Source of the DNA: Syntrophaceae bacterium UBA6087
GTDB lineage: Bacteria; Desulfobacterota; Desulfomonilia; UBA1062
Length of the DNA: 64,000 bases
Reading direction: 5' to 3'
Assembly: GCA_002448235.1 (NCBI GenBank)
Contig: DIXF01000001.1
Span: 137,136-201,135 of the forward strand
Part shown: in pieces, positions 2,064 through 57,578 of the stretch
Numbering within the stretch: the stretch's first letter is position 1
Layout of the letters: the number at the start of each line of letters is the position of its first letter
Made by a program: the position numbers and the translations under genes
The notes under the pieces: generated by a model
The model's database searches: none
What the model was told of the DNA's origin: nothing
What the model saw: only the letters and a program-made list of their open reading frames with translations

Positions 2064-2067
2064 GGCT

Positions 2068-19910: not shown

Positions 19911-20891
19911 ATGATCAGCAGGGAAGCCAGAAGGGTCCGAAGCAAAGAAGGTTTTATCCCGGACGACCTGTCGCAGAACAGGTCGCTGGCGCTTTTCACC
20001 GAGAGCATCGTCTCTCTGCTGTCGAGTCCTTCCCTGAGCAGCGCCATGATCGATCTCGTATCCCTGATGGGGCAGACATTCCCACTGGCCGCGCCCGCGC
20101 TCTACATCAGCATGAATGGGTCCCAGGCACAGGCATATTCCGTGCTCGACCGAAACGGGGTCGGGCCGGGCGATGCCGGGAGGGTATTGGGGCACAACCG
20201 CTTCAACTATATCCCGGTCCCGGTGGGAGGCCATCCTCCGCTCATACAGCGCCGGGTCGATATGCTGCTCGTTGATACTCCTGTCACCAAGGTTGTCCTG
20301 TCGATAAACTCAGGAATCCATGACGGAATATTCCGCGAATGGGTCAAAATCTTGACGCCGGCCGTTTCCAAGCTCATGGACAATGAGGTGCTCCTCAAGA
20401 TGGCCTACCGGGACGGGCTTACGGGCCTGCTCAACTTTCGTGCATTCGAGGAGATGCTCTATGCGGAAGAGGATAGGGCGCGAAGATACCGGACGGCATT
20501 CTCCGTTATGATGGTAGATGTCGACTGGTTCAAGAAAATCAACGACAGCTACGGCCACCAGATAGGCGACGTGGTGCTGAAGTCGCTTTCAGACAGGCTT
20601 ATCCACTGCGTCCGGAAGAGCGACAGCGTATTCAGGTACGGAGGGGAGGAGTTTGCCGTTATACTTCCCCACACAGGCCTTCTCAAAGCCGTTAAGCTGG
20701 CAGAAAGGATCCGGTACATGGTCGAGAAGACGGATTTCATCGCCGGTCTGCATATCACCGTGAGCATCGGGATCAGCGAATATGAAGAGGGTCTGGAGAC
20801 CTGCGACCTGGTCAAGCAGGCCGACAAGGGCCTTTATCTGGCGAAGGAACGCGGGCGGAACCGTGTTGAGATGATGAAAGGCGTTTCATGA
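19911..20891 (+). CDS. Diguanylate cyclase (GGDEF domain) with an N-terminal sensory, GAF-like region.
   Basis: The ATG at 19911 follows the RBS GAGGAGGAG; the listed ORF starts upstream at a TTG. The GGDEF core reads RYGGEEFAVILP, with LTGLLNFRAFEE and DVDWFKKINDSYGHQIGD. Confidence 0.85.
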   Translation: MISREARRVRSKEGFIPDDLSQNRSLALFTESIVSLLSSPSLSSAMIDLVSLMGQTFPLAAPALYISMNGSQAQAYSVLDRNGVGPGDAGRVLGHNRFNYIPVPVGGHPPLIQRRVDMLLVDTPVTKVVLSINSGIHDGIFREWVKILTPAVSKLMDNEVLLKMAYRDGLTGLLNFRAFEEMLYAEEDRARRYRTAFSVMMVDVDWFKKINDSYGHQIGDVVLKSLSDRLIHCVRKSDSVFRYGGEEFAVILPHTGLLKAVKLAERIRYMVEKTDFIAGLHITVSIGISEYEEGLETCDLVKQADKGLYLAKERGRNRVEMMKGVS

Positions 20892-31126: not shown

Positions 31127-31563
31127 GATACTCTCCCATGCCGCTGTATTGCGATCTCATTGATGAAATTCATTTCCTGCCTTGCCTCTTCAGCCGAATA
31201 CCGCTCTTTATCGATTTCCTTCAGGCGCTCGATTGCTTTTGCTTCTTTTTTCTTCTTGAGCAGTTCCTGACGTTTTGTTTCAAGCATTTTCCGTGCCTTG
31301 GCGATCTGTTTTTCCACCTGGGTGATCCCGGATTCCAGATAAAATATATAATTGTTATACGAGATGATCTCCTGCGCCGTGATTCCCGAATCCATTTTCT
31401 CGGTGAGGTTCTGCCAGACAGAAGCTCTCCGGGAAAGAATGGCGGTTTTCAGGTTTTCCAGGTCCATGAGCACTTTCTGAGCCTTGGAGAATTCCTGCAG
31501 TGCCAGGTCTTCTCGAATCTTCCTGACTCGCGAAAGGGTCTCGAAACGGAAACGGAATCCCAT
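31123..31563 (-). CDS. fliJ: Flagellar export chaperone FliJ.
   Basis: 146-aa coiled-coil protein located directly downstream of fliI. Confidence 0.7.
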   Translation of the reverse strand: MGFRFRFETLSRVRKIREDLALQEFSKAQKVLMDLENLKTAILSRRASVWQNLTEKMDSGITAQEIISYNNYIFYLESGITQVEKQIAKARKMLETKRQELLKKKKEAKAIERLKEIDKERYSAEEARQEMNFINEIAIQRHGRVS

Positions 31564-31572
31564 GGTTATCCC

Positions 31573-32892
31573 CTACTTCGCTGCGGGCAGGATCTTTTTC
31601 ATCATGCCCAGAGCGTTTTCTATGCTCACCTTTGCATCGATATCCTGCTTCAGAAAGTCGTTTATGGCGTCGATATGTTTGATGGCGGTGTCTATCTGGG
31701 GGTTGTTCCCCGAGACATAGGCGCCGATGTTGATGAGATCGCGCGCCTCTTCATACACCGCCTTGTATTCGAGGATCTTTCGGGCCATGTTCATATGGTC
31801 CTTGCTCACGATATCGTTCATCACCCTGCTCACGCTTCTGAGGACATCCACCGCCGGGTAATGATTCCTCGCTGCAAGATCACGGGAAAGCACGATGTGG
31901 CCGTCAACGATCGAACGGACGCTGTCCGCAACCGGTTCGTTCATGTCGTCGCCTTCGACGAGGACGGTATAGAGGCCCGTGATGCTTCCCTGGGAAGCGG
32001 CATTCCCGGCCCGCTCCAGGAGCTTGGGAAGTCTGGCGAAACAGGAAGGTGTGTACCCTTTGGTTGTGGGAGGCTCGCCCACAGCGAGGCCGATTTCCCT
32101 CATAGACATGGCAAACCGGGTCACGGAATCCATCATGAGGAGCACGTCGAGCCCCTTATCCCTGAAGTATTCCGCAATGGCGGTAGCGAGGTATGCGCCC
32201 CGGATGCGGATGAGCGCAGGCTGGTCGGATACGGCCGCAACGACCACCGAGCGCTTCAGGCCTTCTTCTCCCAGGTCCCTTTCGATGAACTCCTTTACCT
32301 CTCTGCCGCGCTCGCCGATGAGCGCGATCACGTTTACATCGGCCTTGGTATGGCGGGCCATCATGCCCATGAGGACGCTCTTTCCAACGCCGGAGCCCGC
32401 CATGATCGCCATGCGCTGTCCCTTGCCGATGGTCAGAATGCCGTTGACCGCCGAGATCCCGAGGTCCAGCGGTTCGGTGATGCGTTTCTTTTTCAATGGG
32501 TTCATGGGATGGCCGTACAGGGGCGTTTCTTCCCCGAGGAGAAGCATTCCATGACCGTCCAGGGGGTTGCCCATGCCGTCTATCACCCTGCCGAGGAGCT
32601 CACGGCCGACCTTGACGGTCGGGTGGGATTTCCTCGCGATGATGGTGCTGCCCGGGCCGATGCCGCTTAGATCCCCGAGCGGCATGAGGAGGACCCGTTT
32701 GTCCCTGAATCCGACGACCTCCGCCATAATGGATGAGTTCATTTGCTTGGAGTATATCTCGCACATGCCGCCCATGGAGCTGCCCGGTCCGTGGCCTTCC
32801 ACCACCAGGCCCACGATGTTCGTGACCTTGCCGCGCACCTGGACGGGGTCGGTATCTTTGAGAATAGCGGCATATTTTGCGAGGCTAGTCAT
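31573..32892 (-). CDS. fliI: Flagellum-specific ATPase FliI.
   Basis: Walker A motif MAGSGVGKSVLMGMMAR. The Walker B and F1-like fold sequence reads LLMMDSVTRFAMSMREIGL. Confidence 0.95.
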   Translation of the reverse strand: MTSLAKYAAILKDTDPVQVRGKVTNIVGLVVEGHGPGSSMGGMCEIYSKQMNSSIMAEVVGFRDKRVLLMPLGDLSGIGPGSTIIARKSHPTVKVGRELLGRVIDGMGNPLDGHGMLLLGEETPLYGHPMNPLKKKRITEPLDLGISAVNGILTIGKGQRMAIMAGSGVGKSVLMGMMARHTKADVNVIALIGERGREVKEFIERDLGEEGLKRSVVVAAVSDQPALIRIRGAYLATAIAEYFRDKGLDVLLMMDSVTRFAMSMREIGLAVGEPPTTKGYTPSCFARLPKLLERAGNAASQGSITGLYTVLVEGDDMNEPVADSVRSIVDGHIVLSRDLAARNHYPAVDVLRSVSRVMNDIVSKDHMNMARKILEYKAVYEEARDLINIGAYVSGNNPQIDTAIKHIDAINDFLKQDIDAKVSIENALGMMKKILPAAK

Positions 32893-33556
32893 GATCGAGA
32901 ATCACTTCCTTCATATGTTCGATCTCCGACCGGACGGTTGCATCGATATCTCCGAACTCGGTCTCAATGATGACCCCGCCGCGTTCTATGGAGCTGTCGT
33001 CAACGACATGGACGGCGTTCTTTCCGGTGAGCTTCTTGGAAAGAATGGTTTCGATATCCCGGATATATTCGAAATCCGAAGGGTGGAGGCGAATGCGGAT
33101 CTCTTCCGTTTCGGTAAGGTGACTGGTCGCCGCGCGCACCGTATCCAGGATGATGTCGGGAGACAGGTGTATCTGGCGGTGTATGACTTTTTCTGCAATC
33201 AGGAATATTATCTCCAGGATCTGTTCATGATGCTTTTCGATTATGGACGATCTAAGCCCGGACAACTCTTCGATGGTGTTTTTCAGGGTATCGAACAGGG
33301 GTTCGATCTGTTTTATGGCCATCTTGCGGCCTTCTTCCTGGCCTTTGAGTATCCCCTCTTTGTAGGCCTCCATCTCGATGGATTCTTTCATCGCCCGTGC
33401 ATTCCTGATGATGTCATCGGCGTTTAGCGATGCCTCTTCCTTTTTCCCAGGCTTTGTCTTGGACTCCATCTCCTTGATGGTATAGGAGGTCACGGAAGAA
33501 TGCTTCTTGTCTCCTTTGAGTATCCTAGACGAGGACATCCTCACCACCCTTTCCAC
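32885..33556 (-). CDS. fliH: Flagellar assembly protein FliH.
   Basis: 223-aa protein between fliG and fliI, with the FliH C-terminal pattern GGVIIETEFGDIDATV. Confidence 0.75.
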   Translation of the reverse strand: MERVVRMSSSRILKGDKKHSSVTSYTIKEMESKTKPGKKEEASLNADDIIRNARAMKESIEMEAYKEGILKGQEEGRKMAIKQIEPLFDTLKNTIEELSGLRSSIIEKHHEQILEIIFLIAEKVIHRQIHLSPDIILDTVRAATSHLTETEEIRIRLHPSDFEYIRDIETILSKKLTGKNAVHVVDDSSIERGGVIIETEFGDIDATVRSEIEHMKEVILDHD

Positions 33557-34541
33557 CGATGACGATTTTGCCTCCCGCCTCGAGCTTTCTCACCACGCGG
33601 ACGATGGACTGCTGCGCGCTCTCTACATCGGAAAGCTTGACCGGTCCCATGGCTTCCATGTCGTCCAGGAGCATCTCGGAGGCTCGCGAGGACATGTTTT
33701 TCAGGATAAGGCTCTTCAGATTTTCGCTTGCCGTCTTCAGTGCAAGGGCGAGTTCCTCGTTCGTTATCTCCTTGAGGATGGTCTGGATGCCGCGGCTGTC
33801 GATGCCGACGATGTCTTCGAACACGAACATCTTCTGGCGGATGCCCTCGGCAAGGTCTGCATCCATTTCTTCGAGGAACGAGAAGATATTGTTCTCCGTA
33901 TTGTGGTCCATCTGGTTCATGATCTCGGCAACGGTCTCGACGCCGCCGAGCTTCTTGCTATCGGTGGAGCCCATGGCCTCGATCTCCTTGCGCAGGACCT
34001 GGTCGAGGTCTTCGATGACGCCTGCGGGCACCATGCCCAGGTTGGCCATCCGGAAGATGATCTCGGGCTGGAGCTTTTCGGGCAGTTCCTTGATGATCTG
34101 GGCCGCCTTGGCATAGTCGAGATGGGCAAGCACCAGGGCCACGGTCTGCGGATGCTCACCTTTGAGATAATCCACGAGGATCAGCGGGTCCACCCCTTTC
34201 AGCGATGAAAAGGCCGTGGTATCGGTAGCCATGGAAATGGATTCCAGGATCGGTTTTGCCTTATCCGCACCCAGGGCCGAGACAAGGGCGTCTTTGAGAT
34301 AGTTCATACCCTTGCCGGTTACTCCGCTGACCTGGGAGCTCAATGTCGCATATTCGTCCATGACGGTCTGCACAACATCCACGGGGATGGTAGCGTCTTC
34401 GAGGCTTGCCAGCCGTTTCCCCAGCAACTTGATCTCGTACTCCGTCAAACCTTTGAACACGTTGCGGGTAAATTCGTCGCCCATGGCCATGAGGAAGATG
34501 GCCGCCTTCTGGGGGCCGTCGATTTTCTTCAACTTCATCAT
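33525..34541 (-). CDS. fliG: Flagellar motor switch protein FliG.
   Basis: N-terminal GPQKAAIFLMAMGDE; 338 aa. The start overlaps the fliF stop. Confidence 0.9.
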   Translation of the reverse strand: MMKLKKIDGPQKAAIFLMAMGDEFTRNVFKGLTEYEIKLLGKRLASLEDATIPVDVVQTVMDEYATLSSQVSGVTGKGMNYLKDALVSALGADKAKPILESISMATDTTAFSSLKGVDPLILVDYLKGEHPQTVALVLAHLDYAKAAQIIKELPEKLQPEIIFRMANLGMVPAGVIEDLDQVLRKEIEAMGSTDSKKLGGVETVAEIMNQMDHNTENNIFSFLEEMDADLAEGIRQKMFVFEDIVGIDSRGIQTILKEITNEELALALKTASENLKSLILKNMSSRASEMLLDDMEAMGPVKLSDVESAQQSIVRVVRKLEAGGKIVIGGKGGEDVLV

Positions 34542-36157
34542 CAGACGTTCTCCTGCAACCAGGATTTCACAACCGCGGTGGCAGTGTTCATATCATCCTT
34601 GCTGGACTTTTCGATCACCTTGCGCTTGCCCTGAACCATATGCTTCAATTCCTCGCTTCTCGTGAGGGCCTCGATCTGGGGCAGCTCCTCGCCCGTTATT
34701 TCTGGCAGATCCTCTGATGAGGGCAGGGATCTTCTCTTGTCCGCGCCCCGTTCGATGACCTTGAAAGATTTTACGAGCCACCGCATGAGAGGACGCACCA
34801 CGAACAAAAGGATAAGCAGCGTGGTTACGAGAAAGACGGCCGGCTTTATGAGCGAAGCCAGGAGCTCGTTCTTTTTCGCCTTATCCGCCAGGGCGGCCAT
34901 CTCGGGTCCTTCCTGTATAAAGGGCATGCAGGAGATGGAGAACGTATCCTCGCGGTCGGCGCTGAAGCCCACGGTCTGCTTCACCGCATCTTCGATGCGT
35001 TTGAGCTCGTCCGCAGTCCTTGTGGTGAATGCGTTGTTCCCCTTCGCATCGGTCTTGTAGGTGCCGTCAACAACAACGGATACACTTAAGCGGGTGACGT
35101 TTCCCGGCGATTTGACCCGTTCGGTCTGGTTCCGGGCGATCTCATAGTTGCGGATGACATTTGACCGGCCTGCCGCTGCGTTGTCAGAGAAGGAGCCCGG
35201 TCCCCCCCTGCCCGTGGGCAGGTTTGACTGGGTCCCCGCGATGCCGCCGCTGACGGCATCGTCGCCGGTATAGGCGTTCTTCAGCTCTTCGCTCCTCACC
35301 ACATGGATCTCGGGGTCATAATTGTCTTCGACGCTCTTGACCATGTCCATGTCGATGTCGGCGCTTACCTTCACCACCGCGGTGGCAGGCCCCAGGATCT
35401 TTTCCAGGAGGTCCTGGGCGCGGCCCTGGAGGGTATTTTCGATGGTATGCTTGACATCGAGGTAGTTGTTGGCAAGGGATATGGATGCGGCATCCTTTTT
35501 GCCTTCATAGAGCACCTTGCCCCGGATATCCACGATGCTGATATTCTCGGGATCGAGGCCCCGTACGCTCTTTGCCACCAGGTACACGATTCCCTGCACC
35601 TGACCCTGGGGGATGGTGAGCCCCTGCTTCGGCTTCACGACGATGGAGGCCTTTGCGGGCTTTTCGTCCTCGATAAAGACGCTCTCTTTGGGAAGCGCGA
35701 TATGGACCCTGGCGTAATCCACTTCCTCCAGGGCCATGATGGTATTGGCCAGCTCGTTCTGGAGGGCGCGCTGATAGTTGATCTTCTGGACGAACTCGGA
35801 TGTGGAGAATCCCGTATCGTCAAACAACGCAAACCCTTCACCCGTGCCGCCCTTGGGCAGGCCTTTGGAAGCCAGGTCCAGCCGGGTCTCGTACACGCTC
35901 TTTTCCGGGATCATGACCGCTGTTCCCGCCTTGGTCAGCTTGTAGGGGACGCGGTTTTCCTTCAGGTGCTGGACGATCATCGATGCATCCGACTCGGCAA
36001 GGTTGGTGAACAGATACTGGTACTTGGGTTCGAACGCCCACATCAGTGACACGATGATGACGGCTGCCGCCAGACCGAACATCCCGAAAACGGTGAGTTT
36101 CTGGCCGGTGCTCGTACGGGAGAACCATGCCTTTAAGTTGGAGAGAATGTCGTTCAT
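34541..36157 (-). CDS. fliF: Flagellar M-ring protein FliF.
   Basis: 538-aa protein with two transmembrane segments and the conserved FliF periplasmic region. Confidence 0.9.
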   Translation of the reverse strand: MNDILSNLKAWFSRTSTGQKLTVFGMFGLAAAVIIVSLMWAFEPKYQYLFTNLAESDASMIVQHLKENRVPYKLTKAGTAVMIPEKSVYETRLDLASKGLPKGGTGEGFALFDDTGFSTSEFVQKINYQRALQNELANTIMALEEVDYARVHIALPKESVFIEDEKPAKASIVVKPKQGLTIPQGQVQGIVYLVAKSVRGLDPENISIVDIRGKVLYEGKKDAASISLANNYLDVKHTIENTLQGRAQDLLEKILGPATAVVKVSADIDMDMVKSVEDNYDPEIHVVRSEELKNAYTGDDAVSGGIAGTQSNLPTGRGGPGSFSDNAAAGRSNVIRNYEIARNQTERVKSPGNVTRLSVSVVVDGTYKTDAKGNNAFTTRTADELKRIEDAVKQTVGFSADREDTFSISCMPFIQEGPEMAALADKAKKNELLASLIKPAVFLVTTLLILLFVVRPLMRWLVKSFKVIERGADKRRSLPSSEDLPEITGEELPQIEALTRSEELKHMVQGKRKVIEKSSKDDMNTATAVVKSWLQENV

Positions 36158-37315: not shown

Positions 37316-38647
37316 TCAGGGGTGCTCGATGTCTGCGGAATTGACCGATTCTGCGTCGGAAAATTGACCATTGCCCGAATACTCGTTGAGTTTGTTGCGC
37401 AGGGTACGGATGCTGATGCCCAGGAGCGATGCAGCCTTTGTCCGGTTTCCTTCCACGCTCTGCAAGGTAGTCATGATGAGGCTCTTTTCCATGGCATGGA
37501 TCGTGGTGCCCGCCTCGACAGACTGTCGGGAGGTCTCCTCGCAGCCTTCCATGCCAAGGGTAACGGTGTCGGGATATATTTCCGGACCGTCGGTCAGGAT
37601 CATGGACCGCTCGATCACATTTTCAAGCTCCCGGACGTTGCCCGGCCAGGAATAACTCAGGAGGGCATCTTTTGCCTGGGGCGTCAAATTCTTCTCGCTC
37701 ATCCCTTCGCGACCTGCAATTTTTGTAATGAAGTGCGCGGCAAGGGGGAGGATATCGTCCTTCCTGGACCGAAGCGGCGGCACTTTTATGGGGATAACGT
37801 TGAGCCGGAAATAAAGGTCTCTGCGGAACCTGCCTTCTTTCACGTCGATCTCGATGTCGCGGTTTGTGGTGGCGATCACCCGGAAGTCCACGTTGATGGG
37901 TGCCTTGGACCCGACCCGGTCGATCTGTTTCTCCTGAAGCACCCGTAAGAGCTTTGCCTGGAGGCCGATGCCGACCTCGGTGATTTCATCGAGGAGTATG
38001 GTGCCTTCGTGGGCGAGCTCGAACTTTCCCACCCTCGTGGCATAGGCGCCGGTGAACGCCCCTTTTTCGTATCCGAACAGTTCGCTCTCCAGCAGGGTAT
38101 CGGGGATGGCGGCAAGGTTTATCCCCACGTATGGGCCTGTCTTACGTTTGCTGAGTCTGTGGATGTAGCGCGCAATGACTTCCTTGCCCGTTCCGGATTC
38201 TCCCTGAATGAGCACCGGGGCCTGGGTGGGGGCCACTTTCTCGAGCATCTCGATAATCTTCTTCATGCCTTTGTCATGTGCGATGAACGATCCGGCCTGT
38301 GGCGATCCCTTGGTTTTCCCCGCATGGAGGAGGATATTGATGACCTGGCGGAATTCATCGGCAAGGAAGGGCTTCTTCAGATAATGCGCGGCCCCTGCCT
38401 GGAGCGCGAGGTCACAGAAAAGCGTGCCGGTGGCTACGATCTCTATGTCCTGATATACCTGCTTGGTGCCCTCGACCACGTCAAGAAAGTCGTCCGATAT
38501 GATGGCAATGGAATGGGATTTCGGGTTGATGGCGCCCAGAAACTTGTCCTTGTCCGTGAAGGGACACGGCGTTTCGCCCATTTCGTCAATAAGCTCTGCG
38601 AGTATGGTGACGGTGGACTTGTCAGGATCGAGGATCGCGATTGACAT
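37316..38647 (-). CDS. Sigma-54-dependent transcriptional activator of the FleQ/FlrA type (receiver-like N-terminal domain, AAA+ domain, Fis-type HTH).
   Basis: AAA+ sigma-54 activator motifs GESGTGKEVIARYIH, GAFTGA and ESELFGYEKGAFTGA. There is a C-terminal HTH. Confidence 0.8.
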   Translation of the reverse strand: MSIAILDPDKSTVTILAELIDEMGETPCPFTDKDKFLGAINPKSHSIAIISDDFLDVVEGTKQVYQDIEIVATGTLFCDLALQAGAAHYLKKPFLADEFRQVINILLHAGKTKGSPQAGSFIAHDKGMKKIIEMLEKVAPTQAPVLIQGESGTGKEVIARYIHRLSKRKTGPYVGINLAAIPDTLLESELFGYEKGAFTGAYATRVGKFELAHEGTILLDEITEVGIGLQAKLLRVLQEKQIDRVGSKAPINVDFRVIATTNRDIEIDVKEGRFRRDLYFRLNVIPIKVPPLRSRKDDILPLAAHFITKIAGREGMSEKNLTPQAKDALLSYSWPGNVRELENVIERSMILTDGPEIYPDTVTLGMEGCEETSRQSVEAGTTIHAMEKSLIMTTLQSVEGNRTKAASLLGISIRTLRNKLNEYSGNGQFSDAESVNSADIEHP

Positions 38648-38655
38648 GGCGGCTG

Positions 38656-41331
38656 CTATTTCCTTCCAAAGAGGTCTTTGAATCTCGTATATTCGCTTAT
38701 CTCGTTGTCGAGAGCCACTTCGCGAAGAGAGTTGTTCGCAAGATTTTGCAGCGTCTTATCTTTTGTCTGCTGAAGCACTTGGGTCAGGAGCTTTGTCGCC
38801 TCTTCGTCGTTGCCTTCGCCATGGTGTACCTGGGCAAGGTGGTAGAGTGCCCATTCCCTGATGGGCGTCTGCGGATAGGTATTGAGCAGCTTTGTGTAGA
38901 GCGCTCGCGCCCTTGCCGGTGTTTCCGTCTGTCTGAGCTCGTTGGCCCGGGCATAGAGGGCCTCTTCTATGACGGGAGATTTCATGGAATCGGCGTAGGC
39001 GACGATCCGGTCGAGAGCTGCAGCCTCGCCCGCCTTGTTGCCGAGCTTGCGATGGGTTTTTGCCAGATACAGGAGATCGAAAAGCGCCCTCTCGCCGCCC
39101 TGGCGTATGGAATGCTCAAGGAAGGGCACGGCCTCGGCGAAGTGGTTCGTCCGGTAGAGGATTTCACCCCGGATTGCCTGCATCTTTACATAGTCTTTTC
39201 CCTGGGGGTATCCCTTCAGATATCTCGTGTTCCATACAAGTGCTCCGGCGTAGTTCCCTTTCCGGTAGTCGACGGAGAACAGGATGGACAAAGCACGGTC
39301 GGTTCTGTCGGACGGATACTTGATGCAGGCCCGAAGCATTGCGTGCGCCTGGTCCAGATAGCCCAGCTCGTTCATGGCCCTGCCGAGGGCGAACAGCGCT
39401 TCCGGGCTCTTCAGGTCCCGCATGAAGCTGTCCTGAAAGAGGAGATAGAGGTCCCAGACCCGGTCATGCTTTCCCAGGGTGTCGAGGTTTCCGAGATGGA
39501 CGGCCAGCGCTTTCTCCGCTTCTCCCTGGGCATATTTGTGGATGGGATCGTTTTTCTTCGTGCTCAGCCATGCAAGCTGGTATGCATCCAGCGCATTGTC
39601 CCATTCGCTGCGCTTCGCATAGGTCTGGGCGAGGCGTATCTTGATGATCGACCCCAGCGGTCCTTCCTCGTACTCCTTTGTCGACTTGAGATCTTCGTAG
39701 ATATACACCATCTGGTGGAACGCCTTGTCGGAGAGCTTGCCGTCATTCTTCTCCAGATCCTTTTCCTCGATCATCCGGGCTGTCTTGAGCTTGGCAATGA
39801 CGTCGCTCTGGCTGTCGGGCGACATGTTCTCCACCTCGGACAGGACCCCCATCGCCTTCCCGGTCTGCCCAAGCTGGTAGAGGCAATCGCCGAGCGATAT
39901 GAGGTACGGCGCCTTGTCTTCCTTGCGGCTTACGTTGATGGCGAGAAGGAGATAGTCTTTTGCCGTGGCGTAATCGCGCGAATAGTAGGCCGCCTCTCCC
40001 ATCCTGGCATAAAGCCCCGGATCGGCGATAAAGAGTCCGGGGTCTGCCGCAAGGGCGTTCCGGTAGAGCTTCATGGCCCGGGAATGGGCATTGAGGCCGA
40101 GATACGTATCGGCGAGGATTGAATGGTAATATGCCGTGAGCTTCGGGGGGATGCCTTCTTCCTCGAATACGCTCAGCATGCGCCTGTTCTCGACAAAAGC
40201 ATCCTGGAACATCTTCTTGTTGTTCAGGATATCGATCTCGATGAGGTGCGTCTCTGCGGAGATTTCCGTATCGATGGAATCCTTGAGGAACTTTACAAAC
40301 TTCTCCGCTTCGGTGAACATCCTGGAGCGGTTGAGCATTCTTAAATATTCGAGCATGACCGACTCCCGAACAATCCCGGGGGTCATGCCCTGGATGCCTG
40401 AGCTCATGTGCTTCAGGGCTTTCATCGAGTATGCTTCCATATAGTAGGGGTATGCGATCTTCCAGTAGGCCTTGCCGAGAAGGATGCTCTCCTGGGGGGT
40501 GAGTGAATCCTTGTAGTGCTCAAGCGCGTGAATCGCCGATGCGGTATCGTTCTGCTCCAATGATTTTTCTGCAAGCGCCAGGGTGTTCGCCCGGCTCATC
40601 CGGCCGGAAGTGTTGATGTCGAGGATTATCCTGCTCTCTTTTTGGAGAGTCTTTATCTCCACGTCCACCTGCGGGTCGGTGATGCTTATGGCCAGAGCAG
40701 TGCCGCCAAGCATCCTGATAGGCTCTTCGAGGCTCAGCGAAGGAACCCTTGAGATCTTGTCGCCGATGTTCGCGCAGGTTACGTCTCCTTTGAAGATGAG
40801 GAACACACGGCGGTTTTTCGCGTACCGCACCTCGGGCCACATGCCGTTCTGCACAAAGATCTCCACGTTGATTCCGGTATTGTTGGGTTTTGCCTGAATA
40901 TCCCCGATCGGGCAGATTGCCTCCCTGCCTTTCTTCTCGACGATATCGATCACATACCGGGCAGGCTTCTCGGTAAAGCTGGTGGAGAATTCGAAAGACT
41001 GCTTCATGGATATCTTGGCGGTCTTGCCGTCAAAGGCGAGGTCCTGGATCATGAAACTGTCCGTTATCGAGACAGGATCTCCGATAGTGTCCGGAAAATT
41101 GACGATCAGCGACTGGTCTTCCTGTATGATTCTCGGGATAACAAGCTCCTGAAGGTAGAAGACCAGACGCGACTGGCCCGGCCGCCCGCCCGCCTGGATA
41201 ACGTCTTTAGCCGCCGTCAGCGGTGACGGGAGGCATATGGCCGCGAGCAGTGCCCATAGGGCAGAGACGCAAAAGGCGCTGATCGGATGTTTTCCTCGTT
41301 TTTTCACTCCCTCAAGAAATACAACTTTCAT
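38656..41331 (-). CDS. Large secreted tetratricopeptide-repeat (TPR) protein.
   Basis: 891 aa with an N-terminal signal/anchor and many TPR-like repeats (...AYYSRDYATAKDYLLLAINV..., ...ALFALGRAMNELGYLDQAHAML...). It sits directly upstream of the FleQ-like gene with an 8-nt gap. Confidence 0.7.
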   Translation of the reverse strand: MKVVFLEGVKKRGKHPISAFCVSALWALLAAICLPSPLTAAKDVIQAGGRPGQSRLVFYLQELVIPRIIQEDQSLIVNFPDTIGDPVSITDSFMIQDLAFDGKTAKISMKQSFEFSTSFTEKPARYVIDIVEKKGREAICPIGDIQAKPNNTGINVEIFVQNGMWPEVRYAKNRRVFLIFKGDVTCANIGDKISRVPSLSLEEPIRMLGGTALAISITDPQVDVEIKTLQKESRIILDINTSGRMSRANTLALAEKSLEQNDTASAIHALEHYKDSLTPQESILLGKAYWKIAYPYYMEAYSMKALKHMSSGIQGMTPGIVRESVMLEYLRMLNRSRMFTEAEKFVKFLKDSIDTEISAETHLIEIDILNNKKMFQDAFVENRRMLSVFEEEGIPPKLTAYYHSILADTYLGLNAHSRAMKLYRNALAADPGLFIADPGLYARMGEAAYYSRDYATAKDYLLLAINVSRKEDKAPYLISLGDCLYQLGQTGKAMGVLSEVENMSPDSQSDVIAKLKTARMIEEKDLEKNDGKLSDKAFHQMVYIYEDLKSTKEYEEGPLGSIIKIRLAQTYAKRSEWDNALDAYQLAWLSTKKNDPIHKYAQGEAEKALAVHLGNLDTLGKHDRVWDLYLLFQDSFMRDLKSPEALFALGRAMNELGYLDQAHAMLRACIKYPSDRTDRALSILFSVDYRKGNYAGALVWNTRYLKGYPQGKDYVKMQAIRGEILYRTNHFAEAVPFLEHSIRQGGERALFDLLYLAKTHRKLGNKAGEAAALDRIVAYADSMKSPVIEEALYARANELRQTETPARARALYTKLLNTYPQTPIREWALYHLAQVHHGEGNDEEATKLLTQVLQQTKDKTLQNLANNSLREVALDNEISEYTRFKDLFGRK

Positions 41332-41371
41332 GCCAATGGGAAAAAAGAGGTGATGATATTGGACCGGTACG

Positions 41372-41411
41372 CTAAAAAAAGGCCTTTGCCTCCCGGCTCC
41401 GGCAAAGGGGG
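41372..41411 (-). terminator. Rho-independent terminator downstream of the NtrC-family regulator gene.
   Basis: The minus strand reads CCTTTGCCGGAGCCGGGAGGCAAAGG followed by CCTTTTTTTAGC. Confidence 0.5.
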
Positions 41412-41414
41412 AAG

Positions 41415-42818
41415 CTAATCCAGCTTTACTTCTGCGGGTTTTTCAAGCTTCTGCTTCTTGATCTTTTCGACCAGGGTGGTCCGGTTTACGTGCAGGAGTT
41501 TTGCCGCGCGGTTTTTGACCCAGTTGCTCTTGGTGAGGGCCTGCATGATGATGCTTTTCTCAAACTCGCTCACTGCCGTGGAAAGATCTATCCCTGACTC
41601 GGGCAGGTCCAGCCGGGGTACGGTCGATGAAGACCCGGCAGCGCATATCAGAAGCTTTTCGGGGAGGTCGTTTACGTCTACTTCCGTGCCTTCGCATAAG
41701 ACCAGCACGCGCTCCACGAGATTCTCCAGCTCGCGGACATTCCCCGGCCATCGGTACTGCATGAGCACATTCATGGCCCTTTTGGTGAAGCCGGTCACCG
41801 CACTGTTCTTTTCTTTGCCGTACTTGCTCATGAAATGCTTTACGAGCAGAGGAATGTCCTCTTTCCTGTCTCTTAAGGGCGGCAGATTCAGAGGTATGAC
41901 ATTGAGCCGGTAGTAGAGGTCTTCGCGGAACCTGCCTTCGGCAACCTCTTCTTCGAGGTCTTTATTGGTGGCCGCGATAATCCGGACATCGGTCTTGATC
42001 GACTTGACTCCTCCGACCCTCTCGAACTCCCTTTCCTGCAGGACGCGAAGCAGTTTGACCTGGAGGTTCGGGCTCATTTCCGATACCTCGTCAAGGAAGA
42101 TGCTCCCGCTGTGGGCGAGTTCGAAGCGGCCGATCCTGGTCCGGAATGCGCTCGTAAAGGCTCCCTTCTCATGTCCGAACAGCTCGCTCTCGAGCAGCTC
42201 TTCGGGGATTGCCCCGCAGTTGACGGGGACAAAGGGATTCTGCGCCCTCGGGGAATTGTAGTGCAGGGCACGGGCAACGAGCTCTTTGCCTGTTCCCGAC
42301 TCGCCGAGGACCAGCACGGTCGAATCCGTGGACGATACCTTGTCGATGAGGCTGAAGACCTTCTGCATCCTGTCAGAGGTCCCGATGATGTTCTCGAACT
42401 TGTACTTCGCCTTGAGCTGCTGCTTGAGGTATGTATTCTCTTCCTGCAGGGCGAGATGGTCCAGGGCCTTCTTCACTACGACCTTGATCTCGTCGGCCTT
42501 GAAAGGCTTGGTGATGTAATCGAAGGCGCCGAGCTTCATGGCATCGACTGCCGTCTTGACGGAGCCGTACCCCGTGAAGATGATCCCGATGCAGTTCAGC
42601 TTGTTCTCCACGAGGTAGCGGATGACGCCAAGCCCGTCGAGCTCGGGCATCTGGAGGTCGGTCAGCACGACGTGAAACTGGTCCTGTGAAAGCTGGGAGA
42701 TAGCATCCTTGCCGTTGGAGGACGAGCTTACGTTATAGTCTTCCTGAGAAAGTATCTCAGTGAGATAATCCCTGTTCTGCCCTTCGTCATCGACAATAAG
42801 TATATTATATGCGCCCAT
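41415..42818 (-). CDS. Sigma-54-dependent two-component response regulator (NtrC/FlrC family).
   Basis: Receiver domain (ILIVDDEGQNR...VVLTDLQMPELDGL), an AAA+ domain (GESGTGKELVARALH, GAFTSA) and a C-terminal HTH. Confidence 0.85.
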   Translation of the reverse strand: MGAYNILIVDDEGQNRDYLTEILSQEDYNVSSSSNGKDAISQLSQDQFHVVLTDLQMPELDGLGVIRYLVENKLNCIGIIFTGYGSVKTAVDAMKLGAFDYITKPFKADEIKVVVKKALDHLALQEENTYLKQQLKAKYKFENIIGTSDRMQKVFSLIDKVSSTDSTVLVLGESGTGKELVARALHYNSPRAQNPFVPVNCGAIPEELLESELFGHEKGAFTSAFRTRIGRFELAHSGSIFLDEVSEMSPNLQVKLLRVLQEREFERVGGVKSIKTDVRIIAATNKDLEEEVAEGRFREDLYYRLNVIPLNLPPLRDRKEDIPLLVKHFMSKYGKEKNSAVTGFTKRAMNVLMQYRWPGNVRELENLVERVLVLCEGTEVDVNDLPEKLLICAAGSSSTVPRLDLPESGIDLSTAVSEFEKSIIMQALTKSNWVKNRAAKLLHVNRTTLVEKIKKQKLEKPAEVKLD

Positions 42819-51111: not shown

Positions 51112-53868
51112 TCAGTTCTCCAGCGCCCGCCTGATCACTTCCTTGAGCTCTCTGGTGCCGGCCGGCTTCATGAGCAGCTCCCGGATGCCCAGGCTCTTGA
51201 TCTCGCACTCGTCGATGGTATCGCTGAATCCGGTACACAGTATGACGGGGATGTTCGGGCGGATGTCCGTAATCCTCGAAGAAAGCTCCAGGCCGTTCAT
51301 CTGCGGCATAGTGAGGTCGGTAATGACCAGATCGAAGGCGTGAGACGATTGCGCGAACAGCTGAAGGGCTTCTACGCTGCTCTTTATGGGATGAACGTCA
51401 TAGCCGAGCTTGTCCAGCGCCTTGCTCACGCTGGAGAGGATGATATCTTCATCGTCGATGAGCAGGATCTTCCCCTTTCCACTGCCCGGCAACGCCGCTT
51501 TTCCGTCCGCTGCCCGGTCATGCGCCCGCTCATTCGTCAGAGGGAGGTATGCGATGAACCGGGACCCTTTCCCGGATGTGCTCTCAACAGTGATGGTGCC
51601 GCCGTGGTCCTTGAGGATGCCGTGGACGACGGCAAGCCCCATGCCGCTGCCTTTGCCCACATCCTTGGTGGTAAAGAACGGTTCGAAGATATGCGGGAGT
51701 ATCTCAGGATCCATGCCGCAGCCTGAATCTTCAACCGAAAGCTGGAGATAGTTGCCCGGTTTAATGTCCAGGCCGTGATCCGCCGAGTCCAGAAGGGTAT
51801 TGAGAAGGCTCACTTCTATGACGCCTTTCTTCGAATCGATCGAATCAGCGGCATTTTTACACAGGTTCATAATGATCTGCTGGATCTGTGTCGGATCTGC
51901 CAGGATCGAGTCGTCTGTCGCGTTGAAGTTGTGGCGGATCTCTATGATGCTCGGGAGCGACGACCGCAGGAGGACGAGCGTTTCCTCTATCAGCGGGGTG
52001 ACCTCTGTCGGTGAGAACTGTTTTTCCTTACGCCTGCTGAACGAGAGGATCTGCTTGATCAGATCTCTCTGCCGGTACGCTGCCTGGAGCATCTGCTCCA
52101 GCGTCTTATGCAGAGGGGTGTCCTGCCCCGTTTCCTCCATGAGCATCTCGGTGTTGATAATGATCGGGTAGAGGATATTGTTCAGGTCGTGGGCTATGCC
52201 GCCTGCAAACCTGCCCAGAGCCTCCATTTTCTGGGCTTGTATGAGCTGGTTTTCGAGATCTTTCTTCTCTTTCTCCGCACGCCTGCGCTCGGCGACTTCA
52301 TCCTCGAGCTGCTTGTTTCTCGTTTCCAGCTCGATCGTCCGTTCTTTTACCAGCTCTTCCAGATGGTCACGATGCCTGCGCAGCTCTTCCTCGGCTTTTT
52401 TCCGTCCGGTGATGTCCACGAACGACCCTACGCAGCCGCGGACCTGTCCCTCCGCATCCAGGAGAGGGCTGGCATTGCCCAGGATCGTGATCGTTTTTCC
52501 GCTCGGCAGCAGGACATCCATCTCGGAGTCCAGGATGTCCTTGCACTTGGCTGCGGCCTCCTGCATCGGGAGCTTTTCGGGGCGCAGTTCGATGCCTCCC
52601 CGGAAAAAGCGCCTGGTCGTGTCGTGAACGTCCGGATCAGGTCCGGCAGAGACGTTTTCGTTTTCATAGGACTCATAGAAACGATTCGCTGCAGTATTGC
52701 CGGTAATGGTGTGGCAGTGCGGATCGCGGGACACCCAGATTGCCGTGGGGGCGAGGTTCATGAGCTTTTCCACTTCCTCGGCGCGCTGACGGGCTGTCTC
52801 TTCGCTCTCCCGCAATGCCCGCTGCATCCGGATGGTCTGGAGTGCGTTGCCGCATTGGGCGGCCACCCACTCGGCCAGACGGAAGTGGTGATCGCTCCAT
52901 TCCTGCGTGTGCCTGCAGTAGATCGTTATGGCACCAATAGATTTGCTTTCGCTATGCATCGGGGAACAAAGGACAGACCGGAACGCATCCGCTTCCGGGA
53001 CTTTCAGAGTCCACAGGTCGGGCCTGAGCGAAGTGTCGTGCAGGCATGCAGTGCGGTTTTCGCGGATCGTGAGATCCATGAAGGAGCTCTCCAGCGGCCA
53101 TGGTCCGGAAATCTGGGTATCCAGGCCTGTTTGCGCCAGGGCCGACAGCAGGCCGGCCTGAATTTCATAAATCACGACTGCCGATGCTGCATCGCCGAAT
53201 AATCTTGTGGCATCGATGCAGAGGTCTGTTATCACTGTCTGCTCGGAGCTGACGAGACGAGACGAATCCAGCAGTTTCTGCAGCATCTCTTCACGCCCGC
53301 TCAGCTCGACATTCAGCGTCTGGATATCTTCCGACTGAACCTGAAGCTCTTCGGACTGCGCCTGAAGCTCCTCATTCTGCTGGGAGAGCTCTTCTGACTG
53401 CTGGGCCAGCTCCTCGTTCTGCATCGAGAGCTCTTCCGTCTGCTGGGCGAGCTCGTCGTTCTGCTGGCGGACTTGCGCATTGATCTGCGCCAGGTCGTCA
53501 AAGGCTTTTTCCAGGCGGGCCAGCAGGAGAATGATCAGGTGAACTGCTGCAACACCGACAGAAATATTGATCAGGGTGGGCAGAAGAAGATGCAGGGTCG
53601 GGTCTTGCGGAGCCGACCCTGAAGGCAGTAACAACTCGAACTTCACGACGGCCATGAAGGCAAATATTCCTGCCATTATCCACAGCAGCCTCTTCCTCCG
53701 CGTCCAGATGCAGATCAGCAGAGGCAGGGTATAGGTGAGGGGGAACGCGGCGTCACTGAAAATGAACATCCGGATGATCCCCCAGAGAACTACGGTACCC
53801 ATGGCAACAGCCCAGGCAACAAAAGTCGAGGGTTTCCGCCGTAAGAAAACAGGGAGTTCGTTCATCAT
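51112..53868 (-). CDS. Hybrid sensor histidine kinase. It has a 4-TM membrane module, then a Q/E-rich heptad coiled coil, then GAF, PAS, HisKA, HATPase_c and a C-terminal receiver.
   Basis: The coiled coil reads QQNDELAQQTEELSMQNEELAQQSEELSQQNEELQAQSEELQVQSEDIQ. The H-box reads LGRFAGGIAHDLNNIL. HATPase motifs are DSGCGM and GSGMGLAV. The receiver reads ILLIDDEDI...LVITDLTMPQMNGLEL. The start at MMNELP overlaps the cheR stop as ATGA. Confidence 0.85.
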   Translation of the reverse strand: MMNELPVFLRRKPSTFVAWAVAMGTVVLWGIIRMFIFSDAAFPLTYTLPLLICIWTRRKRLLWIMAGIFAFMAVVKFELLLPSGSAPQDPTLHLLLPTLINISVGVAAVHLIILLLARLEKAFDDLAQINAQVRQQNDELAQQTEELSMQNEELAQQSEELSQQNEELQAQSEELQVQSEDIQTLNVELSGREEMLQKLLDSSRLVSSEQTVITDLCIDATRLFGDAASAVVIYEIQAGLLSALAQTGLDTQISGPWPLESSFMDLTIRENRTACLHDTSLRPDLWTLKVPEADAFRSVLCSPMHSESKSIGAITIYCRHTQEWSDHHFRLAEWVAAQCGNALQTIRMQRALRESEETARQRAEEVEKLMNLAPTAIWVSRDPHCHTITGNTAANRFYESYENENVSAGPDPDVHDTTRRFFRGGIELRPEKLPMQEAAAKCKDILDSEMDVLLPSGKTITILGNASPLLDAEGQVRGCVGSFVDITGRKKAEEELRRHRDHLEELVKERTIELETRNKQLEDEVAERRRAEKEKKDLENQLIQAQKMEALGRFAGGIAHDLNNILYPIIINTEMLMEETGQDTPLHKTLEQMLQAAYRQRDLIKQILSFSRRKEKQFSPTEVTPLIEETLVLLRSSLPSIIEIRHNFNATDDSILADPTQIQQIIMNLCKNAADSIDSKKGVIEVSLLNTLLDSADHGLDIKPGNYLQLSVEDSGCGMDPEILPHIFEPFFTTKDVGKGSGMGLAVVHGILKDHGGTITVESTSGKGSRFIAYLPLTNERAHDRAADGKAALPGSGKGKILLIDDEDIILSSVSKALDKLGYDVHPIKSSVEALQLFAQSSHAFDLVITDLTMPQMNGLELSSRITDIRPNIPVILCTGFSDTIDECEIKSLGIRELLMKPAGTRELKEVIRRALEN

Positions 53869-54767
53869 CGGTACTTCTCCTTGGTGTGGTACAGGCATCT
53901 GCTCATGCCTGTGCAATAAACATCGGCCGGCGGCCGTTCGGCCTTTCCGGACACAAGAATTCCTCCCGGCGCAAGGATCGGAGCCAGATCACGCCATACC
54001 GAGGCAGCGGCAGTCGGGTTGAGATAAATGGCGGCATTCCGCCACAGAATGATATCCCATGGGCCTTGCTCCGGGCCGTTCAGCACATCGGCAACCTTCC
54101 AGACAGTCTTGGCGCGAAGGGCCCGGACGGGCCTGAACATCCCTGCCTGAGCAGTGAAGTACGCACGCCGGAGTGCGGGGGGGAGAAGAGAAAGCTCCTC
54201 TGTATCGTAGAGCCCTTCCCGGGCCTGCTCGATTGCATCCTCACGGCAGTCCGTACCGAGGAGGAAGCTTTCCTCCAGCAGGCCGGCCTCGGAGAGAAGG
54301 ATCGCCATGCTGTACAGCTCGGCGCCGGATGAGCAGGCAACGCTCCATACCCGCAGGCCTTTTCTCCGGACAGCAAGCTCGGGCAGGACATGCGTTCGGA
54401 TTGATTCAAAAACGAACGGGTCGCGGAAGAACTCGGTAACACCGATCAGAAGCGCGCTGACCGCAGTCGCGAGCAGATGGGGCTGGTGCTCGATGAGTAT
54501 TCGTGCAGCAAGGGGCGAGGGGGCTTTCAATGCCCGCAGGCATGCAGGAATCCTCCGGTGCAGGGGCTGTACCCGATAGGACCGGGAGTTCAGTCCCGCC
54601 CTGCAGAGAACCCATGCAACGAACTCGTCCATGGGCGTCTCTTGATGCTTTGTTATAGACCCGCTGGAAGCCTTTTTCTGAGATCCGGCCGTCAGGCTCC
54701 GGCGAGGGAGCATACCCGGCTTGCCTTCAAAGGATATGTGGCGCAGGTCGGCCGTACGACTGTTCAT
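53865..54767 (-). CDS. cheR: CheR-type protein-glutamate O-methyltransferase.
   Basis: TEFFRDPFVFESI is the CheR signature. The SAM-binding motif reads LRVWSVACSSGAELYSMAILL, and RNAAIYL is also present. The N-terminal start is uncertain. Confidence 0.8.
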   Translation of the reverse strand: MNSRTADLRHISFEGKPGMLPRRSLTAGSQKKASSGSITKHQETPMDEFVAWVLCRAGLNSRSYRVQPLHRRIPACLRALKAPSPLAARILIEHQPHLLATAVSALLIGVTEFFRDPFVFESIRTHVLPELAVRRKGLRVWSVACSSGAELYSMAILLSEAGLLEESFLLGTDCREDAIEQAREGLYDTEELSLLPPALRRAYFTAQAGMFRPVRALRAKTVWKVADVLNGPEQGPWDIILWRNAAIYLNPTAAASVWRDLAPILAPGGILVSGKAERPPADVYCTGMSRCLYHTKEKYR

Positions 54768-56117: not shown

Positions 56118-57578
56118 TCAAGGTTTTCCTGACGGCTTGGTGATGTTGAGGAAAAGATTGACGCCTTCAGCTTCCTTCTCGACAACGACTGTCACATCCT
56201 CGGGCAGACCCGAGGCAAGGCTCTTGAGTTCTTCTTCGCTCCTGTGAATCAGGAACCATTCCGAACCGTATTCCATCTTGAATCTCTGTGGGTTGTAGAC
56301 CCCGAAATTTCCGATGATCAGTTTCCCGCCTGGTTTCAGGTGACGGTACAGTTCGAGGATGAGCCGGCTGACGGCGTTGGGGGACAGGTAGTCGCACAGG
56401 CCTGCGGTATAAATGAGATCGGCATGGGAATAACGTGCCTTTTCCTTGTTCCTCCCCAGGATGAGGTGTTTGATATTATCCTCGGCGAAGTCCATATGGA
56501 CACCGGAGAGCGTTTTAGCTATGGGAACGAGTCTCTGTTTTGCGTTTTCAAGCGCATGCGTATCCTGATCCATGGCAAGGAGCTCCAGTTTCACCGGCTT
56601 GGGCTCATCGCTGATCGCGGTGAGAAAGTCATGAATCTCGACGCAGGGGCCGCAGGCGACGCTGACGATCTTGCAGGTGCTGCCTTCGGGGAGTGAATCG
56701 TACAGAGAGGTTATCTTTCTGCACAGATATTCGCGCCGGTTCCTGACGGCCTTTGCAGCTGACCCTTCGCAGTCTACCTTGTTCATGACCTGGGAGAAGA
56801 TATCCTCTCCTTCGAAGCCGTTCCGGTATGTGATGTTCATCATTTCATAATCTCCGGCGTACCCCAGCGGTTTTGTGTATGCCCTGCGGAATAACGCCGA
56901 GGCCGTGAAGAATTCGTTGAGCATCTTCTGGAAGTATTCCCGGTGTATGAAATGCTGCTTGGAATCCGTAAATTTCCCGACTATTTTTGTAAACTGGTCG
57001 CAGTATTTCAACGTTACGTCGTTGATGACGGTAAAGGTCAGAGAGCGCAGCGCTTCATAGAGCTCTTTTTTAACGAGCTCTTCCTCCCTGCTGACTTTCT
57101 CCTCCTCTTCCTTTAGCCTGTTTCTGAAGTTCGTGAGGAGGTAGTGGAGGTGGGAGGTAAGGTGAACGAATTCTTCATCGAGATTATCTTCCACAGCCAG
57201 AGACTGGATAAAGTCGAGGTAGTCGTGTCTGAGGCGTGTGAGCTTGTCGCCCTTAATGATCGTGGAGATGTCCATGACATTCTCCAGGCGGCAGCCGATC
57301 CGGGAGATAACCTTGCCGTCCTGGTAGTCATCCTGGATATGGACGATCGTAGCCGTATCGGAGTGCACTTCCTTGTTGTGCGAGATAAAGCAGAGCCCGG
57401 AGATCATGTCGCCGATGCGGAAGACAAGGCTGCCATCCTGCAGGAGGAAAGACAGGCCTGTCCGTGAGAAGTCCCTGACTTCACAGGTGCGCTCGATCCC
57501 CTGAAAATCGTTGAACCTGACCGTTTTGCCCGATTCGCCTGGCTCAGTCAGATAACGCGGATCTCTTCTCAGCCTCAA
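56118..57578 (-). CDS. Fusion of an N-terminal PilZ domain with a C-terminal class I SAM-dependent methyltransferase.
   Basis: PilZ motifs RRDPRY (RxxxR) and RDFSRTGLSF (DxSxxG). Methyltransferase motif I reads KIVSVACGPCVE. The post-motif II/III region reads HADLIYTAGLCDYL...LKPGGKLIIGNF. Confidence 0.7.
   Translation of the reverse strand: MRLRRDPRYLTEPGESGKTVRFNDFQGIERTCEVRDFSRTGLSFLLQDGSLVFRIGDMISGLCFISHNKEVHSDTATIVHIQDDYQDGKVISRIGCRLENVMDISTIIKGDKLTRLRHDYLDFIQSLAVEDNLDEEFVHLTSHLHYLLTNFRNRLKEEEEKVSREEELVKKELYEALRSLTFTVINDVTLKYCDQFTKIVGKFTDSKQHFIHREYFQKMLNEFFTASALFRRAYTKPLGYAGDYEMMNITYRNGFEGEDIFSQVMNKVDCEGSAAKAVRNRREYLCRKITSLYDSLPEGSTCKIVSVACGPCVEIHDFLTAISDEPKPVKLELLAMDQDTHALENAKQRLVPIAKTLSGVHMDFAEDNIKHLILGRNKEKARYSHADLIYTAGLCDYLSPNAVSRLILELYRHLKPGGKLIIGNFGVYNPQRFKMEYGSEWFLIHRSEEELKSLASGLPEDVTVVVEKEAEGVNLFLNITKPSGKP

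Follow-up and report, generated by a model that had tools for sequence, protein, structure and literature searches.

The DNA analysed here (the window) is a stretch of 64,000 nucleotides from contig DIXF01000001.1 of Syntrophaceae bacterium UBA6087, and its minus strand carries an operon of two genes only: a CheR-like protein-glutamate methyltransferase gene (cheR; 53865..54767, minus strand; 300 amino acids; PF01739, E = 4e-36) followed by a hybrid sensor histidine kinase gene (51112..53868, minus strand; 918 amino acids; assigned from its Pfam domains and the public gene call). Direct reading of the sequence showed that the TGA stop codon of cheR (53867-53865) and the ATG start codon of the kinase gene (53868-53866) form an ATGA overlap of four nucleotides (53865..53868, minus strand), just as an earlier note on this DNA had described. 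On the reverse strand cheR ends with AAG GAG AAG TAC CGA TGA, and the kinase gene begins with ATG ATG AAC. A strong consensus Shine-Dalgarno sequence for the kinase, AAGGAG, lies within the 3' end of cheR (53877..53882, minus strand), 8 nucleotides upstream of the kinase ATG. The public gene calls gave an identical kinase start, with the same length of 918 amino acids and the same 4-nucleotide overlap. For cheR the calls differed, with 255 amino acids in NCBI and ENA versus 300 in JGI. The N-terminal extension of 45 residues holds the motif DL[SR]H[IV]xF[EV]G[KR], which reads DLRHISFEGK in this protein (54720..54749, minus strand) and was kept by most of 30 aligned CheR homologues. Because DLRHISFEGK was found in most homologues, the 300-amino-acid start was taken as real. 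This N-terminal motif could be a docking peptide.

The kinase unites receptor and kinase functions in one protein (HisKA, HATPase_c, and REC). Its N-terminus is a membrane anchor of four predicted transmembrane (TM) helices with no periplasmic domain (residues 15-119; 53512..53826, minus strand; AlphaFold2), at a position where relatives of the kinase have a DUF4118 domain. The anchor is followed by a run of nine heptads of the MAC type, a class described below (residues 130-192; 53293..53481, minus strand; identified from the sequence and from a profile of fused CheB-CheR proteins), and directly after the heptad helix by a GAF domain (residues 208-344; 52837..53247, minus strand; PF13185, 2e-07; PF01590, 6.6e-07). 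Next come a weak PAS domain (residues 374-490; 52399..52749, minus strand; PF13426, E = 6.5e-3; PF08448, E = 2.3e-4, at 21.8 bits under the cut-off of 23.1), a transmitter consisting of HisKA (residues 551-614) and HATPase_c (residues 658-778; together 51535..52218, minus strand; PF00512, 2.8e-10; PF02518, 5.3e-26), and a C-terminal REC receiver domain (residues 801-912; 51133..51468, minus strand; PF00072, 1.9e-22). No Hpt or output domain was identified for this phosphorelay. The AlphaFold2 model, calculated with an alignment of 51 sequences (mean predicted local distance difference test score, pLDDT, of 88), contained helices at residues 15-36, 43-56, and 59-80, and then a single unbroken helix from residue 90 to residue 204 (pLDDT 85-96), which comprises the fourth TM helix (residues 90-119) together with the heptads and leads into the GAF fold. 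The model is that of a monomer, and we infer the dimer arrangement and the a/d register.

The nine heptads at residues 130-192 are NAQVRQQ, NDELAQQ, TEELSMQ, NEELAQQ, SEELSQQ, NEELQAQ, SEELQVQ, SEDIQTL, and NVELSGR. Positions 2 and 3 are Glu-Glu, Asp-Glu, or Glu-Asp in seven of the nine, and position 4 is Leu or Ile in eight. The run of Gln- and Glu-rich heptads that had been reported after the membrane was thereby confirmed. The DNA under the heptads forms a 21-bp repeat and fits better a 42-bp super-period (81% matches; 53327-53467, minus strand), which reflects the alternation of N- and S-type heptads. The number of heptads in relatives varied from 4 to 9, which suggests expansion and contraction through repeat slippage. 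Among all open reading frames (ORFs) in the six frames of the window, the kinase alone matched the heptad pattern. A profile made from the heptads of fused CheB-CheR proteins likewise matched no other ORF of the window (kinase, E = 6e-8). No curated Pfam or NCBIfam family covered the heptad region, which corresponds to a Pfam gap at kinase residues 120-205; the NCBIfam scan yielded, beyond a sub-threshold match to canonical CheR, generic kinase matches only. Pfam matches of the heptads to UPF0242, ATG14, and HmpF were far under the cut-offs and were rejected as reflecting coiled-coil composition only.

The CheR-like protein had 792 homologues in the database, and the best 120 of these 792 were stand-alone proteins of roughly 250-400 amino acids, named from Planctomycetota, Thermodesulfovibrionales, Syntrophorhabdales, and others. 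A scan with CheR, in which one genome per species was used, returned 80 loci. Of the 18 loci with a CheR 40-59% identical to that of the window (L001-L018), 17 had a gene encoding a run of xEEL heptads directly after cheR and in the same orientation. The junction was ATGA in L001, L002, L004, L006, and L011, and also in L007, and GTGA in L016 and L018 (8 further loci besides the window); in the remaining loci the two genes overlapped slightly or stood 4-42 nucleotides apart. All 10 partner kinases that were scanned had the architecture [CHASE3]-DUF4118-heptads-GAF-[PAS]n-HisKA-HATPase-[REC][Hpt], and in all 10 the heptads were located between the last TM helix and the GAF domain. When the N-terminal 350 residues of the kinase were used as the query, TM-heptad-GAF kinases of about 600 amino acids, mostly from Verrucomicrobiota, were retrieved. 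Three of the four verrucomicrobial loci looked up (L084, L086, and L087) had cheR immediately upstream, as part of a three-gene operon consisting of cheR, the TM-heptad-GAF kinase, and a stand-alone REC, whereas the REC of the window is fused to the kinase. In total, a TM-heptad-GAF kinase was located next to CheR in 21 of the 22 loci of this clade, which is distributed over Planctomycetota, Verrucomicrobiota, Acidobacteriota, Nitrospirota, and Binatia. Conservation of the cheR-kinase pair, which the earlier note had proposed to check, was thus found across phyla and is not due to chance. Since the pair is in addition often translationally coupled, a functional coupling of CheR and kinase is supported. 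In two loci from long-read metagenome-assembled genomes, L007 (7749-8700) and L014 (7001-8751), the frame of cheR or of the kinase, in or near the pair, was split into overlapping ORFs in different frames. These broken frames are most likely assembly indels and not real pseudogenes.

The other loci of the scan, with CheRs of about 25-38% identity, showed two arrangements. One was a single polypeptide, CheB_methylest-CheR_N-CheR-...-heptads-PAS_10-PAS-kinase (for example L056 and L019), in which the heptads begin some 200 residues after the CheR domain; the occurrence of the motif in fused CheB-CheR-PAS-kinase proteins, which the earlier note had stated, was thereby confirmed. The other, present in eight loci, consisted of a CHASE3-GAF-(3 heptads)-HisKA-HATPase-REC kinase with cheR immediately after it, and with cheB after cheR in three of the eight (L026, L048, and L064). 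In a neighbour-joining tree of CheR domains, rooted on E. coli CheR as the only canonical CheR included, three clades were obtained that equalled the three gene arrangements. The window CheR belonged to the clade with cheR, then a heptad kinase, and no CheB; it did not group with this one canonical outgroup. Neither of the two sequence-based results that the earlier note had named as refuting its hypothesis, a clustering with canonical CheRs and a pair that relatives lack, was therefore obtained. Nearly all of the 80 CheRs closest to the window CheR in the genome collection were attached to the heptad motif.

The fused-class heptad profile matched every partner kinase of the window's clade. 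In the heptads of this clade (n = 121), position 1 was N, S, A, or T, position 2 was E in 82%, position 3 was E in 95%, position 4 was L or I in 95%, and position 7 was Q in 71%. The two other architecture classes shared this E-E-L core (E, 89-96%; L, 89%) and differed at positions 5-7. Over all three classes, Glu was present at position 2 in 82-96% and at position 3 in 95-96%, as compared with 81-89% for the core Leu. Such conservation of Glu is unusual beside coiled-coil core positions, and the finding that Glu at positions 2-3 is conserved like the core Leu points to a constraint beyond helix packing.

Both the N-terminal and the methyltransferase domain of solved CheR structures, 5FTW (2.8e-23) and 1AF7/1BC5, could be aligned with the CheR-like protein, and its best solved structures were canonical CheRs (E = 1e-18 to 1e-23). 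It had no PF03705 match; its residues 56-108 aligned with the N-domain of 1AF7/1BC5. In E. coli numbering, R53, R59, R98, E129, D154, R230/N231, and Y235 were invariant in 30 family members and were retained in all three CheR clades. Of these, R98 and Y235 (R115 and Y248 in this protein) are the catalytic residues (PMC3447774), and E129, D154, and R230/N231 contact S-adenosylmethionine (SAM). R53 and R59 belong to the N-terminal helix, in which R53 takes part in substrate recognition. R56 and R57 were replaced with invariant Ala and Cys, respectively, in the CheR-like family. The invariance of the catalytic and SAM-binding residues argues for selection on catalysis. By its sequence, the protein seems to be an active glutamate methyltransferase whose recognition surface has been altered. 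It scored 69.5 bits against the NCBIfam equivalog for canonical CheR (NF007902), below the cut-off of 435, and a phmmer search with E. coli CheR matched it with E = 1.5e-19; identities within its clade were 40-72%.

A Pfam scan of the predicted genes in the window detected none of MCPsignal, CheW, CheA, and CheB_methylest. A phmmer search of the window with E. coli Tar, Tap, CheW, CheA, CheB, and CheR, for which the query proteins were taken from locus L083, matched only the CheR-like gene and REC domains. The kinase itself had no Pfam match to MCPsignal (PF00015) and was not matched by Tar or Tap in phmmer.

Proteins with this combination of parts belong to a class named MAC (methyl-accepting coiled coil), which reportedly goes back to a genomic prediction by Wuichet and Zhulin in 2010, as credited in secondary sources. 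One secondary source gives this credit, states that MAC has no Pfam profile, and describes the addition of MAC1 and MAC2 profiles; we took the definitions of MAC1 and MAC2 from two secondary sources. A 2022 preprint describes MAC proteins as combining receptor and kinase functions. Its supplements list the components cheb.MAC1/2 and cher.MAC1/2, with MAC1 in 29% and MAC2 in 19% of proteomes, and the pair of cheb-MAC2 and cher-MAC2 is given there as the strongest coupling in the data set. A search of the available literature returned no later paper with the term MAC, save one incidental mention, and a full-text search on the heptad peptide motif and CheB-CheR fusions returned nothing relevant. 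The locus has those features of the class that can be read from sequence, namely an adjacent CheR and a MAC-like coiled coil within the kinase protein itself, while MCP (methyl-accepting chemotaxis protein), CheA, and CheW are absent. It is a member of the known MAC class, a published genomic prediction, and not a new kind of system, and the hypothesis of the earlier note is an independent rediscovery of the MAC proposal.

Compared with MAC1, the locus is alike in having a run of NEEL-type heptads, with Glu-Glu in every heptad, ahead of the sensor and histidine-kinase domains. The associated CheRs are of related lineages, and the cluster is without MCP, CheA, and CheW. However, MAC1 is defined by CheB and/or CheR in the MAC polypeptide, seen here as CheB and CheR together with a PAS_10 domain after the heptads, whereas the CheR of the locus is a separate, translationally coupled protein of another clade and no CheB domain is present; because nothing is fused, the locus is not MAC1. 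In addition, its heptads extend from the membrane to the GAF domain, and positions 5-7 are Gln-rich, as opposed to Ser/Thr-rich in MAC1. With MAC2, which corresponds to the MiST 3 classes cher-MAC2 and cheb-MAC2, it shares a separate CheR gene beside a coiled-coil kinase. In MAC2, CheB and CheR co-occur, whereas the 64 kb contain no CheB, and the MAC2-like loci differ further in their order of kinase, cheR, and cheB, in having three heptads between GAF and HisKA, and in a different CheR clade. The fit of the locus to MAC2 is therefore uncertain, given a separate CheR and no CheB in the window.

The locus resembles the canonical Tar/CheR/CheB system of E. coli in its SAM-dependent glutamate methyltransferase of the CheR fold with the same catalytic residues, and in acceptor-like Glu pairs seven residues apart on a long helix beside the membrane. 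It differs from the canonical system in lacking MCPsignal, CheW/CheA coupling, and CheB, in heptads that do not match the methylation-site consensus, in a predicted helix that is continuous, and in an output kinase within the same polypeptide. The signalling helix (S-helix) of histidine kinases is a connector that forms a parallel coiled coil, has polar residues in its core, and passes the TM signal to GAF or PAS domains. In the monomer model, the heptad helix has the geometry of such a connector, running unbroken from the TM helix to GAF. Signalling helices of the usual kind are shorter; they do not repeat a single heptad and are not known to be associated with an enzyme that modifies them. 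A reported precedent for a CheR that modifies acidic pairs of a two-component protein outside chemotaxis is PhoP of Salmonella (PMC8546571). There, a response regulator is a side substrate of the ordinary CheR of chemotaxis, whereas the CheR at the locus is of a dedicated lineage that is genetically locked to its kinase.

We consider it reasonably probable that the co-produced CheR places methyl esters on Glu residues along the heptad helix and thereby biases the kinase output, with a reversal that is slow or occurs in trans. The two co-translated genes would form a MAC-type signalling module. The four-TM anchor would hold the kinase in the membrane, and its last TM helix would run into a helix of about 85 residues with nine xEEL heptads, followed by GAF, PAS, HisKA/HATPase, and REC. 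In the kinase dimer this helix would pair into a marginally stable parallel coiled coil, with Leu in one core position, Asn or Ser in the other, and Glu-Glu pairs on the surface at every turn-pair. The CheR-like enzyme would use SAM to methyl-esterify one Glu of several of these pairs, and the neutralisation of charge would alter the packing and dynamics of the helix, giving an on or off bias to the kinase core and the phosphorelay. Methylation would thus be a covalent setting of gain or memory on the kinase itself, in place of an MCP. Because no CheB is encoded nearby, we propose that methylation would be slowly reversible through spontaneous hydrolysis or protein turnover, or would be reversed in trans by an esterase encoded elsewhere. 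What the sequences show is the layout of the two genes, a pairing that is conserved, catalytic residues that are intact, a helix predicted to be continuous, and heptads similar to those of the CheB-CheR fusions. That the heptad Glu residues accept the methyl groups, how the dimer is arranged, and how kinase activity responds are inferred. CheRs of about 30% identity that are either fused to the same heptads or located beside a kinase with them provide support of the Rosetta-stone type, and in the 64 kb there is no alternative substrate (MCP, CheA, or CheW).

Several results weigh against methylation of the heptad helix. According to the 2022 preprint, MAC proteins were at that time experimentally uncharacterised in any respect. 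The consensus for MCP methylation sites is reportedly that of Alexander and Zhulin, 2007. In its strict form, [ASTG][ASTG]xx[EQ][EQ]xx[ASTG][ASTG], the pattern recovered Tar sites 295, 302, 309, and 491 and matched 0 of the 121 clade heptads, including those of this kinase. Of the proposed likeness to MCP sites, the recurrence of Glu-Glu pairs every seven residues, as at Tar sites 295/302/309, stood, and the strict consensus was rejected as a description of the heptads. AlphaFold2 gave a continuous helix at residues 90-204 of the monomer, and not the antiparallel hairpin four-helix bundle that CheR modifies in MCPs; an MCP-like hairpin, considered for the heptad region, is not predicted by this monomer model. 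A CheB profile built from fusion proteins, which detects E. coli CheB at 2.5e-36, found no CheB in the window, so that the claimed lack of nearby MCP, CheA, CheW, and CheB held in the Pfam, phmmer, and profile searches of the 64 kb. The same profile found no CheB within 5-10 kb in 21 related loci. Adaptation requires an enzyme that removes the methyl groups, and since neither the window nor these 21 loci contained CheB, the full adaptation cycle is not encoded locally. The pairing has exceptions as well: L005 carries a CheR without a heptad protein (the one true exception), and L085 (Opitutus sp. ER46) has the kinase and no cheR. In L085 the upstream position is occupied by a gene for a protein of 183 amino acids without a Pfam family (4165-4716), and a CheR remnant was not detectable there by tblastn. 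In L086, an MCPsignal-hemerythrin gene (1912-3819) lies directly upstream of cheR, and one CheR might serve both the MCP and the kinase in that genome. Finally, the flagellar genes in the window lead us to expect that a canonical chemotaxis system with MCPs is probably encoded elsewhere in the genome.

The mismatch with the MCP consensus would also be explained if CheR acted on the kinase and the heptad helix served as a docking site or tether, with methylation at other sites of the kinase, such as acidic pairs of the GAF domain, of the DHp helices, or of REC. The distance of about 200 residues from CheR to the heptads in the fused proteins is compatible with a tether, and Salmonella CheR was reported to methylate Glu/Asp pairs in PhoP (PMC8546571). 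We nevertheless regard a docking role as unlikely: the Glu-Glu pair is the most conserved surface feature common to the three architecture classes, and the flanking domains vary (GAF here, PAS_10 in the fusions, and HisKA in the third class), which leaves the heptads as the only element common to the CheR partners.

The MCP gene upstream of cheR in L086, together with an MCP at the locus edge in L004, would instead fit a CheR that is a chemotaxis methyltransferase for MCPs encoded elsewhere, with the kinase as a merely co-regulated neighbour. All catalytic residues are as in canonical CheR, and a block of flagellar genes, fliF, fliG, and fliH (32885-36157, minus strand), lies about 15 kb away in an organism that is probably motile. 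This explanation seems quite improbable to us in view of the CheR clade, which tracks the heptad-kinase partner over five phyla in translational coupling, and of nearly all of the 80 most similar CheRs being attached to the heptad motif; in addition, the distance to the canonical enzymes is large, as judged from 69.5 versus 435 bits for the CheR equivalog and from the E value of 1.5e-19 to E. coli CheR versus the 40-72% identity within the clade. A third explanation takes up the lack of an esterase nearby. The CheR-like protein would mainly be a regulatory partner, for example a subunit that senses SAM or S-adenosylhomocysteine and binds the acidic helix, and the signal would not lie in catalysis. 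The overlap of the genes might help two subunits of one complex to be co-expressed. The invariance of R98, Y235, and the SAM-binding residues in 30 members and in all three clades argues for selection on catalysis, and we judge a non-catalytic role to be very improbable.

If CheR does methylate the kinase helix, covalent sensory adaptation would not be limited to chemoreceptor arrays, and methylation would also tune ordinary two-component kinases directly. The locus adds no principle beyond the published MAC prediction and is a clean example of a widespread class. Its clade is a minimal example: the two genes are coupled, the CheR is small, and the five to eight candidate sites are all on one helix. 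We suggest tentatively, as a possibility that we hold at somewhat below even chances, that the TM-proximal pair with cheR first and no CheB represents a lineage or subtype of MAC that has not yet been explicitly described, a third beside MAC1 and MAC2. Such a lineage would be marked by translational coupling, by a CheR clade of its own, and by heptads through which the final TM helix of the DUF4118-type anchor continues to GAF. It fits the data because of the CheR tree, the absence of CheB in 22 loci, and the strong coupling of CheB and CheR in MAC2. If it exists, methylation would be a one-way or slowly decaying covalent setting of a transmembrane kinase in place of a reversible adaptation cycle, or its removal would need an esterase that is unknown or encoded far away.

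The operon lies between an OmpA-family gene, upstream and on the opposite strand, and scpB, which is convergent with the kinase gene, with 22 nucleotides between the end of scpB and the kinase stop codon. The flanks of the window are of the housekeeping type and include ScpA/B, TrpRS, EF-G, the DNA polymerase III delta' subunit, thiamine synthesis, primase, and RpoD. A second methyltransferase gene (56118-57578, minus strand; 486 amino acids) is located 1.3 kb upstream of cheR. The N-terminus of its product gave a borderline PilZ match (22.6 bits, cut-off 22.5), and the C-terminus was a class I SAM methyltransferase just over the cut-off for Pfam CheR (28.5 versus 27 bits); E. coli CheR did not match the protein in phmmer, and NCBIfam assigned no family to it. 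It might be a methyltransferase that binds c-di-GMP. The PilZ-methyltransferase, the OmpA gene, and an intervening ORF of 109 amino acids were rejected as parts of the system and taken as unrelated neighbours, because tblastn found no match to any of them in the related loci.

The flagellar block is followed by two sigma-54 activators, one of which has a REC domain, on either side of a TPR protein of 891 amino acids (37316-42818, minus strand). Other signalling genes of the window were present at 3-4439 (minus strand), 19818-20891 (plus strand), and 28402-30150 (plus strand). The kinds encoded were a REC-PAS-HisKA protein cut by the window edge, a stand-alone REC, a dCache-HAMP kinase, a GGDEF protein, and a PAS-HD_5 protein (HD-GYP-like), and none of them had heptads. 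An ORF of 510 amino acids without a Pfam match (31138-32670) lies on the strand opposite to the flagellar block, and it may be a spurious ORF that shadows a flagellar gene located downstream.

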